Counted from the stretch's first letter, positions 5,344 to 64,000 are shown. The stretch is 64,000 bases of DNA from Escherichia coli (GCF_044324785.1 NZ_CP172127.1), one strand, 5' to 3'. Made by a program: numbers and translations. Notes: generated by a model from the sequence alone, not told the origin.

Positions 5344-8300
5344 ATGATTACTATTGACGGTAATGGCGCGGTTGCTTCGGTGGCGTTTCGCACCAGTGAA
5401 GTTATCGCCATCTACCCTATTACCCCCAGTTCCACGATGGCAGAACAGGCTGATGCATGGGCCGGAAACGGCTTGAAAAACGTCTGGGGAGACACACCAC
5501 GCGTGGTTGAAATGCAGTCGGAAGCAGGTGCTATCGCTACCGTGCATGGCGCTTTGCAGACGGGTGCCCTTTCAACATCGTTTACGTCATCGCAGGGTTT
5601 GCTGCTGATGATCCCGACGCTGTACAAACTGGCAGGCGAACTCACACCGTTTGTCCTACATGTAGCGGCACGTACCGTTGCCACACATGCACTCTCTATT
5701 TTTGGCGATCATTCCGACGTCATGGCGGTGCGCCAGACGGGTTGCGCGATGTTGTGTGCGGCAAACGTCCAGGAAGCGCAAGACTTTGCTCTCATTTCGC
5801 ACATCGCGACGCTGAAAAGCCGCGTGCCATTTATTCATTTCTTTGATGGTTTCCGCACGTCCCACGAAATCAATAAAATTGTCCCGCTGGCCGATGACAC
5901 GATTCTTGATCTCATGCCGCAGGCCGAAATTGATGCTCATCGCGCCCGGGCACTCAACCCGGAACATCCGGTGATCCGCGGTACGTCCGCCAATCCTGAC
6001 ACTTATTTCCAGTCTCGCGAAGCCACCAACCCCTGGTACAACGCGGTCTATGACCATGTTGAGCAGGCGATGAATGATTTCGCTGCCGCGACAGGTCGTC
6101 AGTATCAGCCGTTTGAGTATTACGGGCATCCGCAAGCTGAACGAGTGATTATCCTGATGGGCTCAGCCATTGGCACCTGTGAAGAAGTGGTTGATGAATT
6201 GCTAACCCGTGGCGAAAAAGTCGGCGTGCTGAAAATTCGCCTGTACCGCCCCTTCTCAGCCAAACACTTGCTACAAGCTCTGCCGGGATCCGTACGCAGC
6301 GTGGCGGTACTGGACAGAACCAAAGAACCCGGTGCCCAGGCAGAACCGCTCTATCTGGATGTGATGACCGCACTGGCAGAAGCCTTTAATAATGGCGAGC
6401 GCGAAACCCTGCCCCGTGTCATTGGTGGGCGCTATGGTCTTTCATCCAAAGAATTTGGCCCGGACTGTGTACTGGCGGTATTTGCCGAGCTCAACGCGGC
6501 TAAACCGAAAGCGCGCTTTACGGTTGGTATTTACGATGATGTGACCAATCTGTCACTGCCGTTGCCGGAAAACACCCTGCCAAACTCGGCGAAACTTGAA
6601 GCCTTGTTTTATGGCCTTGGTAGTGATGGCAGCGTTTCCGCGACCAAAAACAATATCAAGATTATCGGTAATTCCACGCCGTGGTACGCACAGGGCTATT
6701 TTGTTTACGACTCCAAAAAGGCGGGCGGCCTGACGGTTTCTCACCTTCGCGTGAGCGAGCAGCCGATTCGTTCCGCTTATCTCATTTCCCAGGCTGATTT
6801 TGTTGGCTGCCACCAGTTGCAGTTTATCGATAAATATCAGATGGTTGAACGTTTAAAACCTAGCGGCATTTTCCTGCTCAACACGCCGTACAGCGCAGAT
6901 GAAGTGTGGTCGCGCTTGCCGCAGGAAGTTCAGGCCGTGTTAAACCAGAAAAAAGCGCGCTTCTATGTGATTAACGCGGCGAAAATCGCCCGCGAATGTG
7001 GCCTGGCGGCCCGTATTAATACCGTCATGCAGATGGCTTTTTTCCATCTGACGCAAATTCTGCCTGGCGATAGCGCCCTCGCAGAATTGCAGGGTGCGAT
7101 TGCCAAAAGTTACAGTAGCAAAGGTCAGGATCTGGTGGAGCGCAACTGGCAGGCTCTGGCGCTGGCGCGTGAATCCGTAGAAGAAGTTCCGTTGCAGCCG
7201 GTTAATCCGCACAGCGCCAATCGACCGCCTGTGGTTTCCGATGCCGCTCCTGATTTCGTGAAAACCGTTACCGCGGCGATGCTCGCCGGGCTTGGTGATG
7301 CCCTCCCCGTTTCGGCGCTGCCGCCAGACGGCACCTGGCCGATGGGCACCACGCGCTGGGAAAAACGCAATATCGCCGAAGAGATCCCCATCTGGAAAGA
7401 GGAACTCTGTACCCAATGTAACCACTGCGTCGCCGCTTGCCCACACTCAGCTATTCGCGCAAAAGTGGTACCGCCTGAAGCGATGGAAAACGCCCCTGCC
7501 AGCCTGCATTCGCTGGATGTGAAATCGCGTGATATGCGCGGGCAGAAATATGTCTTGCAGGTGGCACCGGAAGATTGCACCGGCTGTAACCTGTGCGTCG
7601 AAGTTTGCCCGGCGAAAGACCGTCAGAATCCAGAGATTAAAGCCATCAATATGATGTCGCGCCTGGAACATGTCGAAGAAGAGAAAATCAATTACGATTT
7701 CTTCCTCAACCTGCCAGAAATCGACCGTAGCAAACTGGAACGTATTGATATTCGTACATCGCAGCTGATTACACCGCTGTTTGAATATTCAGGTGCTTGC
7801 TCCGGTTGTGGCGAGACGCCGTATATTAAATTGCTGACTCAGCTCTATGGCGACCGGATGTTGATCGCTAACGCCACGGGCTGTTCTTCAATTTATGGCG
7901 GTAACCTGCCCTCTACACCGTATACTACCGATGCCAACGGTCGAGGACCGGCATGGGCGAACTCGCTGTTTGAAGATAACGCCGAATTTGGCCTTGGTTT
8001 CCGCCTGACGGTCGATCAACACCGTGTCCGCGTGCTGCGTCTGCTGGATCAATTTGCCGATAAAATCCCGGCTGAATTACTAACTGCGTTGAAATCAGAC
8101 GCCACGCCAGAGGTTCGTCGTGAACAGGTTGCAGCTTTACGCCAGCAACTCAAAGATGTTGCCGAAGCACATGAACTGCTACGTGACGCAGATGCGCTGG
8201 TGGAAAAATCAATCTGGCTGATTGGCGGCGACGGCTGGGCTTACGATATCGGCTTTGGCGGTTTGGATCATGTATTGAGTTTGACAGAAAACGTCAACAT

Positions 8301-30505: not shown

Positions 30506-30746
30506 TCCCATTACATCAATGCTTCACAATATACATAGTCCGACTGTACGCCACATCTTCAGGGTTATTAATGGGATAACCTTTCAGCCACGGCTTGATT
30601 AATCGTCCATTGGTATATTGATAAATTGGTGCAATCGGTGCTTGCTCCATGAGGATTTTTTCTGCCGCATTGTAATCGGCATTACGCGCTTGGTGATGCT
30701 GCCAACTTACTGATTTAGTGTATGATGGTGTTTTTGAGGTGCTCCA

Positions 30747-31022
30747 GTGGCTTCTGTTTCTATCAGCTGTCCCTCCTGTTCAGCTACTGACGGGGTGGTG
30801 CGTAACGGCAAAAGCACCGCCGGACATCAGCGCTATCTCTGCTCTCACTGCCGTAAAACATGGCAACTGCAGTTCACTTACACCGCTTCTCAACCCGGTA
30901 CGCACCAGAAAATCATTGATATGGCCATGAATGGCGTTGGATGCCGGGCAACTGCCCGCATTATGGGCGTTGGCCTCAACACGATTTTACGTCACTTAAA
31001 AAACTCAGGCCGCAGTCGGTAA
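30747..31022 (+). CDS. insA: IS1 InsA
   Basis: 91-aa ORF (GTG start) [43 protein letters not shown]..., recognised as InsA. Confidence 0.95.
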
Positions 31023-31444
31023 CCTCGCGCATACAGCCGGGCAGTGACGTCATCGTCTGCGCGGAAATGGACGAACAGTGGGGCTATGTCGGGGCTAAAT
31101 CGCGCCAGCGCTGGCTGTTTTACGCGTATGACAGTCTCCGGAAGACGGTTGTTGCGCACGTATTCGGTGAACGCACTATGGCGACGCTGGGGCGTCTTAT
31201 GAGCCTGCTGTCACCCTTTGACGTGGTGATATGGATGACGGATGGCTGGCCGCTGTATGAATCCCGCCTGAAGGGAAAGCTGCACGTAATCAGCAAGCGA
31301 TATACGCAGCGAATTGAGCGGCATAACCTGAATCTGAGGCAGCACCTGGCACGGCTGGGACGGAAGTCGCTGTCGTTTTCAAAATCGGTGGAGCTGCATG
31401 ACAAAGTCATCGGGCATTATCTGAACATAAAACACTATCAATAA
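30941..31444 (+). CDS. insB: IS1 InsB frame (expressed as the InsAB' transposase by -1 frameshift)
   Basis: 167-aa ORF recognised as InsB. The A6C slippery run (TTAAAAAAC, A-run at 30998-31003) lies in the insA/insB overlap. Confidence 0.93.
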
Positions 31445-32963
31445 GTTGGAGTCATTACCTACGCGCTTTAACGGTATTTTCCGTTGATGCCTGGGCCAGT
31501 ACTTTGTCGTATGCCGGATTGTTAAAGCGTGAAATATTCCCTGAATGCGTTGACGTTAACAACGTAAGGAAAGTGGAGGGTTCATTATAATCCCCTACCC
31601 ATGAGGCGCGGATAACATCAAAATTGCCGGTGTTACGGCTATCGATATAGGTTTTCCATTCCTGATTCTGCAATTTAACATCTACGCCAAGGTTCTTTTT
31701 CCACATCGATGCTACAGCAATCGCAATTTTTTGATGGTTTTCTGAAGTGTTATACAAAAGCGTCAGCTTCAGCGGTTTTTGCGGACCATAACCAGCTGCG
31801 CTCAACAAAGTTTTTGCCTGCGCATTCAGTTCTTCCTGACTCATTTGTTCAAACGGCGAAGGCTCCGGCGTAAAACCGGCAGTAACATCTGGTGTAAAAT
31901 GCCACGCTGGCTTTTCCCCCGTCCCCAACACTTTTTCGGTCATCAGGCGGCGATCTATCGTCATACTTAATGCCAGGCGAACACGCTGATCGGCCGTCGG
32001 CCCTTTTTGCGTGTTAAACGCATAATAATAGGTCCCGAGCTGCGGCGGCGTATAAACCTGCCCCGGAATATCCTTCAACAGCTTCTGATACATATTTTTC
32101 GGGAAGGATTCGGTGATATCAATATCCCCCGCGAGGTAACGCTTAGTGGCTGCGGATTCCTGATTAATTGGCAAGAAGGTCACTTTTTGCAGTACCGTTT
32201 TGGCGTTATCCCAATAATGGGTATTCGGTACCACGACCAGTTTTTCATTGACTACGCGCTCTTCAAGAACATAAGCGCCATTACCGATCAGTTTTCCGGG
32301 TTTCGTCCACTCTTTAATGCTTTCTACGTTGGCTTTTTGCACCGGGAAGAAGGCAAAGTTAGCGGTTAAATTCACAAACCACGGCAACGGTTTATCAAGC
32401 TGGATTTTCAAAGTATGGGCATCAACTGCGGTGACGCCAAGCTGGTCAGGCGTGGCTTTACCATCAATAATCGCCTGTGCGTTGTTGATTCCCGCCAGCG
32501 CGGCAAACCATGCAAATGGCGACAATGTTTTTGGGTCCACCAGACGTTGCCAGCTGTAGACAAAATCTTGCGCCGTTACCGGTGTGCCATCCGCCCATTT
32601 TGCGTTATCGCGCAAGGTAAATGTCCAGATACGGTTGTCATTACTTTTCCACTGAGTCGCAACGCCGGGGACAATCTCCCCTTTCTCGTTCTGATTCACC
32701 AGTCCTTCAAACAGATCGCGAATGACCTGAATCTCTGGCAGGCCCACGGCTTTAGCGGGATCCAGCGACGCAGGTTCATCTTTAATGTGGCGCACCAACT
32801 CCTGCTTCTCTGCCAGTACTGTGCCGCTCGGAACTTCTGCAGCATACGAAAGAGAAATGCTGCTGACCAACAGCGCACAACACGTGACTGAAACAGAGTG
32901 CTTCATAAGTTTCCCTCTAACCGACATTAAAATTGATGCGTAATTATTTGTTTCGCCTTAAAG

Positions 32964-43560: not shown

Positions 43561-43678
43561 TGCTGTCCTGTGCCAGAAAGCTGTAGAAAGGATTAGATAC
43601 TGGAGATAATAATGTGGGTTAATTTTGATTTATCAAATGAATAAGCGGCGTTGTTTACACCGCTCAATAAGTAATTTG

Positions 43679-43993
43679 TTAACCTTTGACCTTCGGCATT
43701 GCGATGTCTTTCAGGCCACCGGCGTTCTCAACGTGGGTATATCCCATCTCGCTAAGGATCTCTTTTGCCTGCCCTGACTGGCGTCCGGCATTGCAATACA
43801 CTTTCACGGTGTCGTTTTTATCCGGAACGGCGGTGGCAATGCGCTCTTTTACTTCCTTCAGGGGAATATTGATGGCCCCCTGAACGTGCTCTTGCTGATA
43901 CTGCTCTGGAACACGAACATCGATCCAGTGTTCAGCGGCGAAAACGGGCAGTGAAAACACCAGTGTCAGAGCAAGTAAGCCTTTTTTAAACAT
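43679..43993 (-). CDS. pspE: Periplasmic rhodanese (thiosulfate sulfurtransferase) PspE
   Basis: 104-aa ORF with a signal peptide and the rhodanese active-site loop CNAGRQS. Confidence 0.94.
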   Translation of the reverse strand: MFKKGLLALTLVFSLPVFAAEHWIDVRVPEQYQQEHVQGAINIPLKEVKERIATAVPDKNDTVKVYCNAGRQSGQAKEILSEMGYTHVENAGGLKDIAMPKVKG

Positions 43994-44067
43994 GTAAGCG
44001 TCCTTCTATGGATGAAAATTGCCATCCATAATATGCCTTAGCTTTAACAATTTTTGCGAAACTCCCC

Positions 44068-46786: not shown

Positions 46787-46837
46787 TGAACTGCACCCCA
46801 AATGTTGGACATAATCTGACATCTGAAGGTGCAGTTT

Positions 46838-48218
<1,381 letters not shown>

Positions 48219-62369: not shown

Positions 62370-63176
62370 ATGATCGAAACGTTGCTTGAAGTGCGTAATT
62401 TAAGTAAAACGTTCCGCTACCGGACCGGCTGGTTTCGTCGTCAGACCGTAGAAGCGGTAAAACCCTTGAGCTTTACGCTACGTGAAGGCCAGACACTGGC
62501 GATCATTGGCGAGAATGGTTCTGGTAAATCCACGCTGGCAAAAATGCTGGCGGGAATGATAGAACCTACCAGCGGCGAGTTATTGATTGACGATCATCCG
62601 CTGCATTTTGGCGATTATTCCTTCCGCAGTCAGCGTATCCGCATGATTTTTCAGGATCCTTCGACCTCGTTGAATCCCCGTCAACGTATCTCGCAAATTC
62701 TGGATTTTCCACTGCGTCTGAACACCGATCTGGAACCTGAACAGCGTCGCAAACAGATTATTGAAACGATGCGTATGGTTGGGCTGCTACCGGATCACGT
62801 CAGTTACTATCCGCATATGTTGGCACCCGGGCAAAAACAGCGTCTGGGGCTGGCGCGCGCGCTGATATTGCGCCCAAAAGTCATTATTGCCGATGAAGCC
62901 CTCGCCTCACTGGATATGTCGATGCGTTCGCAGTTGATTAATCTGATGCTGGAGTTACAGGAAAAACAGGGCATTTCGTATATTTATGTTACCCAGCATA
63001 TCGGAATGATGAAGCACATTAGCGACCAGGTGCTGGTGATGCATCAGGGCGAGGTTGTCGAGCGAGGCAGCACCGCGGATGTGCTGGCATCGCCGCTGCA
63101 TGAACTCACCAAACGGCTTATTGCCGGTCATTTTGGCGAGGCATTGACGGCGGATGCGTGGCGTAAGGACCGTTAA
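62370..63176 (+). CDS. sapF: ABC ATPase SapF
   Basis: 268-aa ORF with Walker A GENGSGKS and Walker B VIIADEAL. Confidence 0.95.
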   Translation: MIETLLEVRNLSKTFRYRTGWFRRQTVEAVKPLSFTLREGQTLAIIGENGSGKSTLAKMLAGMIEPTSGELLIDDHPLHFGDYSFRSQRIRMIFQDPSTSLNPRQRISQILDFPLRLNTDLEPEQRRKQIIETMRMVGLLPDHVSYYPHMLAPGQKQRLGLARALILRPKVIIADEALASLDMSMRSQLINLMLELQEKQGISYIYVTQHIGMMKHISDQVLVMHQGEVVERGSTADVLASPLHELTKRLIAGHFGEALTADAWRKDR

Positions 63177-63805
63177 CAGGTTTCCTGGCTAGTACAATAT
63201 TCTTCACCGATAGCATCAGGGTCGATAAAGGGATACTCATTTTGCATAATATCCTGTAAATATTGTGCAAAATTAACAGCAATGACCTGATAGCTATCGG
63301 GATCATGTAAATAACGAACAATTTGTCCAGATTTTCCTTTTGGAGATGGAGAAAAGTCGATATATAAACGTGAAGTGCCGCCATTATTAATGCAATGAGC
63401 AAAACAGAGCCAGCGATGAAACGGTACAGTTGGATCTATACGTTCATCAACATCGACTTCGTCCATTTGCCCATCGTAGATTTTCATGATGGATTCCTGA
63501 CCAAACCATGACTTTCTTTCCTCCAAAATCTGCTGGGCAGACTGGAGATAATAGGGATATTCTCCGCCTTCAACATCCGCCCCTAAAACGGGTAAAAATA
63601 CCTTTTTATCCTGATGTTGTTGAAAATAAGTTCCCTTGATCTGGCGAAGCAAACCGAGTAAATCCTCCGAAGAATCAGGATATTCATGGAGAAGTTCTGT
63701 TATATCGCTTTCTTGCGCTCCAGACAGTGTTGCAAATAATGCCCTGACATCCGTTGGCAAATGTGCGGCAAGCCCGGCCAAATATTCCTGATACATTGTC
63801 ATCAT
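63173..63805 (-). CDS. SMI1/KNR4 (SUKH-1)-like protein, a possible orphan immunity protein
   Basis: 210-aa ORF. The C-terminal half CINNGGTSRLYIDFSPSPKGKSGQIVRYLHDPDSYQVIAVNFAQYLQDI resembles the SMI1/KNR4 family core (GG..., D.. P..GK.GQV..., then sF.eyL). AAGGA lies upstream of the ATG. It overlaps the sapF stop by 4 nt, convergently. The family call is from pattern memory, not an HMM. Confidence 0.6.
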   Translation of the reverse strand: MMTMYQEYLAGLAAHLPTDVRALFATLSGAQESDITELLHEYPDSSEDLLGLLRQIKGTYFQQHQDKKVFLPVLGADVEGGEYPYYLQSAQQILEERKSWFGQESIMKIYDGQMDEVDVDERIDPTVPFHRWLCFAHCINNGGTSRLYIDFSPSPKGKSGQIVRYLHDPDSYQVIAVNFAQYLQDIMQNEYPFIDPDAIGEEYCTSQETC

Positions 63806-64000
63806 AACGTCCTTTTTTAATCCATAATGAACAGCGTGTTTTGACTGTTTTTCTTAACAAAAGTTCCTGCTGTGCAACGCTCTGGCTCTTTAGTCCTTTC
63901 GTCGCTTATAATAGCTTTTTTCGGTCTTCCTCTTTCTCAAGAGAAAAGCTGCCTGATGTACAGGCACTGAAACGAGTATCAACAATAAGGATTAAAGCTA

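Follow-up and report, generated by a model that had tools for sequence, protein, structure and literature searches.

A rare SMI1/KNR4-family (SUKH-1) gene replaces ycjD between sapF and fabI of Escherichia coli and may encode a stand-alone toxin-binding protein

Results

The window, by which we mean the whole 64,000-nucleotide stretch of E. coli DNA analysed here, carries near its end sapF, the last gene of sapABCDF, at 62370–63176 on the plus strand, as given by our ORF list and by the annotations of strain N3 and of K-12-type genomes. Convergent with sapF, a coding sequence of the SUKH-1 group (SMI1/KNR4 family) occupies 63173–63805 on the minus strand. It starts with ATG and encodes 210 amino acids; a second in-frame ATG at 63802 would give an alternative product of 209 amino acids. 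A 210-aa AT-rich ORF overlapping sapF by 4 nt had been reported here by a first-pass annotation made from the sequence of the window, and both the sequence and the ORF list agree with it. The overlap, read directly from the sequence, is tail to tail: the TAA stop codon of sapF lies at 63174–63176 and the complement of 63173–63175 is the TAA of the SUKH ORF, so that the two reading frames have the four nucleotides 63173–63176 in common. The same overlap was found in every allele examined. The GC content of the SUKH ORF is 41.4% (GC3 35%) compared with 51.5% (GC3 57%) for sapF. In strain N3 the same gene is already machine-annotated in RefSeq, where it is labelled “SMI1/KNR4 family protein” (WP_200834211.1). 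With 418 homologues, a dN/dS ratio of 0.21 and this annotation, the SUKH ORF is a real, constrained gene and not a chance reading frame. No convincing strong sigma-70 promoter was seen upstream of the gene on the minus strand, no intrinsic terminator was found between the convergent sapF and SUKH genes, and an Rfam scan of 62800–64000 returned nothing credible.

The likeness of the C-terminal part to SUKH proteins had been noticed in the first-pass annotation, which had proposed an HMM search and had made the assignment dependent on a SUKH-family match. Such a match is present: Pfam PF09346 (SMI1_KNR4) aligns with residues 65–184 at 38.2 bits (E = 2.6e-9), above the curated gathering score of 25.4 bits that served as cut-off, and mostly over the C-terminal two thirds of the protein. 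Among the matches listed in the database search that returned the 418 homologues, PF09346 was found in 120 of 120; NCBIfam holds no model for the protein. An AlphaFold2 model calculated from an alignment of 35 homologues reached a mean pLDDT of 93 and a pTM of 0.90, and its fold agrees with the HMM assignment. In a Foldseek search against the PDB the core of yeast Knr4 ranked top (E 4e-9, TM about 0.6), followed by FBXO3, BF1740, Lin2918 and YobK; the model also matches Tdi1 and RhsPI, two proteins proven to confer immunity. When PDB sequences were searched with a profile, Knr4 again came first, with the alignment extending over the C-terminal core motif. The predicted structure has the alpha+beta SUKH fold known from Knr4, YobK and Syd. 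Because of the HMM match and the Foldseek and PDB profile matches, membership of the protein in the SUKH-1 group is well supported.

The closest structures are those of the Knr4/Smi1 core of Saccharomyces cerevisiae (PDB 5J1B, 8AJ2) and of the SUKH domain of human FBXO3 (9KBF), although the sequence identity of the SUKH protein to Knr4 and FBXO3 is just 15–20%. Knr4 is a eukaryotic signalling hub with long disordered tails and FBXO3 is an F-box ubiquitin-ligase subunit; we know of no bacterial partner comparable to the partners of these two proteins. YobK of B. subtilis (2PRV), RhsPI (8BD1) and Tdi1 of Bacteroides (8G0K) are encoded directly beside a toxin gene, whereas the SUKH gene described here has no toxin neighbour. 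The protein is also longer than these three, with four additional helices at its N-terminus, and conservation within its subfamily is much higher than among immunity proteins of the YobK/RhsPI/Tdi1 type. It is thus a long form with an N-terminal helical extension and stands nearer to Knr4/FBXO3 than to the short immunity proteins.

The window ends with the first base of the fabI start codon at position 64000 (plus strand), as deduced from alignment and from the annotation of N3, in which position 10001 of L001 corresponds to 64000. The divergent intergenic region between the SUKH gene and fabI (63806–63999) comprises 194 bp upstream of the SUKH ORF, contains no gene and represents the promoter and leader of fabI, which fits the earlier observation that the remaining upstream sequence holds no toxin-like ORF. 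The gene order in N3 and in all draft contigs examined is sapABCDF, SUKH, fabI, yciW, rnb, pdeR, and the order downstream of the SUKH locus (fabI, yciW, rnb, pdeR) is exactly that of K-12. The idea of the first-pass annotation that a cognate toxin gene might follow past 64000 is refuted, because fabI starts at 64000 and is followed by yciW and rnb. No toxin gene adjoins the SUKH gene in the window, in N3 or in any draft contig examined, and the location next to a toxin-domain gene that would mark an immunity protein is not seen at sapF–fabI. Since the next gene is fabI and not a toxin gene, we regard the SUKH gene as a stand-alone accessory gene.

In K-12-type genomes sapF is followed on the same strand by ycjD, which encodes 117 amino acids with a DUF559 domain (E = 1.4e-49), in agreement with the first-pass annotation; between sapF and fabI, the SUKH gene replaces ycjD. 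The proposed comparison of this interval across E. coli strains revealed three alternative contents in complete genomes and confirmed a replacement at a variable locus. ycjD is present in 3375 of the 5426 complete E. coli genomes (62%), and 2038 (38%) carry an 8-kb island of genes for a TetR regulator, an RND adaptor, an RND pump, an outer-membrane factor and an MFS protein. The SUKH gene occurs in a single complete genome out of the 5426, that of strain N3, and by subtraction 12 genomes have other or rearranged contents. Examples of the two frequent states are the efflux island of strain ZH193 (L098, 983–8999) and the ycjD interval of a K-12-type genome (L002, 6178–6965). The slot is essentially dimorphic, holding either ycjD or the efflux island, with the SUKH gene as a rare third state. 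ycjD and the efflux island occupy the same chromosomal slot as the SUKH gene, with the left boundary at the sapF stop codon, but their proteins are unrelated to the SUKH protein and are encoded on the opposite strand. The last 123 bp before fabI are common to the ycjD and efflux types, whereas the SUKH type shares only the last 25–50 bp. Draft assemblies contain the gene less rarely: there, the SUKH cluster at 90% identity comprises 28 sequence variants on several hundred contigs, and the exact protein of the window (P0121) is found on 294 draft contigs. The gene hence combines strain-variable presence with signs of horizontal acquisition: one occurrence in 5426 genomes, a foreign GC content and a slot with three contents.

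Alignments and mismatch maps delimit a block at 63177–63975 that is unlike both the K-12 type and the efflux type and that consists of the SUKH gene and a diverged fabI promoter and leader. In the alignment, identity with K-12 ends directly after the sapF stop codon. The last four codons of sapF contain three synonymous changes relative to K-12, at 63167, 63170 and 63173, and the left edge of the block may therefore fall a few codons inside sapF. On the fabI side, mismatches and a 3-nt indel relative to K-12 reach to about 63975, and no excess divergence was seen inside fabI itself. A TATAAT at 63907–63912 (plus strand) lies in the same register as in K-12, and a hairpin TGCCTG/CAGGCA at 63950–63966 is kept between the two types with a different loop. 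Between the shared motifs GCAAC (63874) and GCCTGAT (63951) the SUKH type and K-12 both have 77 bp, in which 32 of 77 bases are identical; the leaders compared were 63874–63975 of the window and about 6843–6940 of L002 (K-12 type). Just upstream, the K-12-type interval has a FadR-like CTCCGGTCGGACCTGG sequence before fabI, which is missing from the SUKH type. It is mentioned here as a side remark only, as the efflux type lacks it too and it is unconfirmed in the papers found. Neither flanking direct or inverted repeats of note nor a mobile-element signature were found at the SUKH block.

We infer that homologous recombination brought in the block from a lineage whose native gene order was already sapF–SUKH–fabI. 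The exchanged segment would start at the end of sapF, or just inside it, would end in the fabI leader, and would have carried its own diverged fabI promoter region. This donor order is suggested by the synonymous changes in the last sapF codons and by a fabI promoter that is diverged while its –10 hexamer and spacing are kept. The arrival of the block also replaced the fabI promoter region.

At least three SUKH allele groups exist at sapF–fabI, differing from the protein of the window by 0–2, 8–10 and 24–29 residues. Comparison of the window allele with the most divergent one gave dN = 0.050 and dS = 0.23, from which the dN/dS of 0.21 follows, whereas the dS of sapF in the same pair is 0.084. 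The SUKH gene is thus under purifying selection, with alleles older than the neighbouring core genes. Copies of the common allele differ at 1–5 positions over 774 bp on sap backgrounds 1.4–1.8% apart (Fisher p = 7e-4 and p = 0.02 for the near-identity of the block versus the divergence of sap). The near-identity of the block on diverged sap backgrounds indicates that this allele has spread recently between lineages. A search for the donor among species-representative genomes gave no relative with more than 62% identity, and a metagenome scan yielded two low-coverage human-gut contigs only, with the same E. coli SUKH allele. An apparent “83%” metagenome match was discarded as a divergent relative: it is 98.7% identical at the DNA level with gaps and is therefore explained by assembly error. 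No match to the SUKH protein was obtained by tblastn in phage genomes. All plasmid matches were remote (≤ 49% identity) and came from outside the enterobacteria, mostly from Bacillus megaplasmids, and no annotated toxin was present in the two plasmid contexts inspected. Rapid diversification or tandem divergent paralogues, as would be typical of immunity genes, are not seen: the gene is single-copy with a dN/dS of 0.21, and its Stenotrophomonas orthologues are on average 83% identical to each other.

The subfamily occurs in 411 of about 185,000 species-representative genomes, and across Proteobacteria, Bacteroidota and Bacillota its members show 41–49% identity with 34 invariant residues. In Stenotrophomonas/Xanthomonas, the SUKH orthologue is single-copy and stands at one syntenic position in about 43–46 species (L020–L090, about 6001–6590), with genes for a polyprenyl synthetase, a Mur-ligase-family protein, an alpha-amylase-family protein, a dienelactone hydrolase and an aspartokinase/DAP-decarboxylase fusion as neighbours. 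The mean pairwise identity in Stenotrophomonas is 83% for the SUKH protein, 88% for the Mur ligase and 95% for the polyprenyl synthetase. Since the SUKH protein is nearly as conserved as the Mur ligase, no arms-race signature is apparent, and a slow, syntenic orthologue of this kind is atypical for an immunity gene. In Burkholderia, five to six syntenic SUKH loci lie beside genes for cytochrome bd oxidase, bestrophin and glyoxalase.

A wider neighbour survey covered 28 other diverse loci with two genes on either side. No recurrent toxin family was found among the 109 neighbours of these loci, which contain 166 Pfam families. The genes directly upstream in other lineages are mutually unrelated and encode a UvrA paralogue, an MscS channel, an RTX protein, a fucosidase, an ECF sigma factor and an MFS transporter. 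At two Chitinophaga loci a 1475-aa DUF6443 (Rhs-type) gene is located two genes upstream of the SUKH gene, with Imm70 nearby; among the loci examined, an Rhs-type gene near a subfamily member was seen in Chitinophaga only. In Pseudomonas, the SUKH gene either belongs to arrays that also contain DUF7716 and further SUKH-like genes or is present as tandem paralogues, and such arrays or tandem copies were confined to some Pseudomonas and Janthinobacterium loci. Immunity-style contexts of the subfamily thus exist, but as a minority. A gene for a GNAT acetyltransferase is directly adjacent on the same strand at the first three distant loci, from Chitinophaga, Lysinibacillus and Pseudomonas (L011 5457–6017, L012 6597–7067 and L014 6711–7166), and overlaps the SUKH gene in two of them. 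As a linked partner it was rejected, since it accounts for 2 of 109 neighbours in the wider set and is not present at sapF–fabI.

The nearest relatives of the SUKH protein, with 61–62% identity, form its sister clade in a neighbour-joining tree. The sister SUKH gene is the last gene of a four-gene cassette, whose other three genes code for a SWIM protein and for two DUF6493/DUF7824/DUF7825 proteins of 855 and 887 aa. This cassette is located between yegX and yegW in Escherichia sp. MOD1-EC7003 and Shigella flexneri; in Klebsiella aerogenes its site is the thiD–fbaB interval. Cassettes with or without the terminal SUKH gene have the coordinates L007 1413–8624, L099 2393–9624 and L101 474–9796. 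The sister SUKH genes are similar to the window gene in their low GC content of 40%; they stand at another locus, where each closely follows three large uncharacterised genes on the same strand, whereas the window gene is solitary. Among PADLOC models, SWIM_XIII matches the SWIM protein of the cassette (E = 1e-60), and the model of the defence candidate PDC-M40A weakly matches the SUKH proteins (39.8 bits, E = 9e-11, C-terminal part only). The latter match probably reflects the common SUKH domain, and no PDC-M40 partner genes are adjacent to the window SUKH gene. NCBIfam has no model for the DUF6493, SWIM or SUKH proteins of the sister cassette, and no mention of DUF6493 was found in the literature. 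DUF6493 and SWIM genes are absent from the window locus, where the SUKH gene is not part of such a cassette. The cassette of two DUF6493 genes, SWIM and SUKH was not found at high identity in complete E. coli genomes. A related form with three DUF6493 genes and SWIM but without SUKH is present in two of these genomes, and SUKH is therefore an optional component.

Discussion

We propose that the SUKH gene is a stand-alone accessory gene in a replacement hotspot between sapF and fabI. Its product would be a cytoplasmic, non-enzymatic protein in which an N-terminal helical extension is followed by the SMI1/KNR4 alpha+beta core, and it would act by tight one-to-one binding of another protein. Binding of another protein is the most likely mode of action. 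As binding partner we hypothesize the C-terminal toxin domain that competitors inject as part of a polymorphic toxin (Rhs, T6SS or CDI), in which case the SUKH protein would provide “orphan” immunity against non-self toxins without a cognate toxin gene of its own. A competitor's toxin domain seems the most likely partner because the SUKH gene is extremely sporadic in E. coli and its base composition is foreign. The match of the model to the immunity proteins Tdi1 and RhsPI and the Rhs-type or array contexts of some relatives in Chitinophaga and Pseudomonas also speak for this proposal. Isolated SUKH genes were proposed to confer immunity to non-self toxins by Zhang et al. 2011 (PMC3113570). 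Our confidence that the protein is a stand-alone toxin-binding protein of the orphan immunity type is low, and we would put its probability at roughly 0.4.

This estimate is weakened by the missing adjoining toxin gene, the synteny in Stenotrophomonas and Burkholderia, the absence of a recurrent toxin among the neighbours surveyed, the 34 invariant residues, the likeness to Knr4/FBXO3 and the want of a convincing promoter. Since no toxin is linked in E. coli, an immunity role is without local support, and the genomic contexts suggest that the immunity reading is not well supported at the family level either. From the immunity interpretation of the first-pass annotation, the family membership stands and the linked toxin falls. 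The opposite case that it had considered, a conserved neighbour of sapF with no linked toxin anywhere, holds only in part: the SUKH gene is not a conserved neighbour in most E. coli, and a linked toxin is indeed lacking as far as loci were examined.

The main rival explanation is that the protein is a Knr4-like SUKH-1 adaptor or regulator of an endogenous protein, of which E. coli possesses an occasional accessory copy. The near-housekeeping conservation at one syntenic site in about 43 Stenotrophomonas species, the synteny in Burkholderia and the residues kept invariant across Proteobacteria, Bacteroidota and Bacillota all argue for it, as do the adaptors Knr4/Smi1 and FBXO3 as best matches in sequence and structure and the neighbourhoods without a recurrent toxin. 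However, a gene that over 99.9% of the complete E. coli genomes lack is hard to square with a housekeeping partner, and the patchy distribution (411 of about 185,000 species representatives), the foreign base composition and the relatives found in SUKH arrays or near an Rhs-type gene also speak against an adaptor; we consider this explanation rather unlikely. Similarly doubtful, and slightly more so, is the wider proposition that the protein is no immunity factor at all and that it represents a long-form SUKH-1 subfamily, similar to Knr4/FBXO3 and deeply conserved, whose binding partner is endogenous. This subfamily is inherited vertically at one position in Stenotrophomonas and in Burkholderia, and its enteric members close the uncharacterised DUF6493–SWIM cassette. 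If the endogenous-partner reading is true, the subfamily would be the closest that bacteria have to the eukaryotic Knr4/Smi1 adaptors.

The SUKH protein could also be useless in E. coli, its gene being a neutral passenger of a recombined block that was selected, possibly for the altered fabI promoter, or that is drifting. This would agree with the very low frequency of the gene, with the lack of a recognisable promoter and with the simultaneous exchange of the fabI promoter region, of which only 32 of 77 bases are identical to K-12. Against it, hundreds of assemblies from at least three allele groups retain an intact reading frame, with a dN/dS of 0.21 at a dS of 0.23, and the block is present on diverged sap backgrounds; we judge a passenger role improbable. 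Still less probable is that the gene is a detached part of the DUF6493/DUF6493/SWIM/SUKH cassette which acts with or against such proteins encoded elsewhere or on incoming DNA, for although the 61–62% identical sister proteins of MOD1-EC7003, Shigella flexneri and Klebsiella aerogenes end that cassette, and although its SWIM protein fits SWIM_XIII (E = 1e-60) and the SUKH protein shows a weak match to PDC-M40A, no DUF6493 or SWIM gene adjoins the window gene, a search of the complete E. coli genomes did not detect the cassette at high identity, the related form lacks SUKH, and more distant subfamily members are without such linkage.

If the SUKH gene is an orphan immunity gene, as we tentatively prefer, it would add another case of E. 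coli strains gaining protection from the toxins of competitors through allele replacement between core genes and not on mobile elements, which would be useful to know, if expected. The housekeeping-like behaviour of the orthologue in Stenotrophomonas cautions against calling every bacterial SUKH protein an immunity protein. Whatever the function, the block brings a strongly diverged promoter region for an essential gene, and as a side effect of the SUKH allele the promoter region of fabI, the essential target of triclosan, is swapped.

Further features of the window and of strain N3

Compared with N3, the window contains a 768-bp insertion at 30692–31459 with InsA- and InsB-like ORFs (IS1). 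The insertion adjoins mppA at its 3′ end; the mppA ORF of the window has 490 amino acids and appears truncated. A second insertion relative to N3, of ~1.43 kb at 46787–48218, lies between pspF and puuE and contains two overlapping IS3-family transposase ORFs, which look similar to InsJ and InsK of IS150. In N3, pspE is directly followed by ycjX (L102, 45352–45471), and the window is collinear there at about 43600–44000. In K-12, pspE and ycjX are presumably separated by the ~13-kb ycjM–ycjW/ompG cluster, which appears to be absent from the lineage of the window. In N3, the only complete genome with the SUKH allele, many genes are flagged as frameshifted, including sapA, nifJ and abgB (L001, 3896–5538; L102). 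The ORF lengths of sapB, sapC, sapD and sapF in the window equal those in the N3 annotation.
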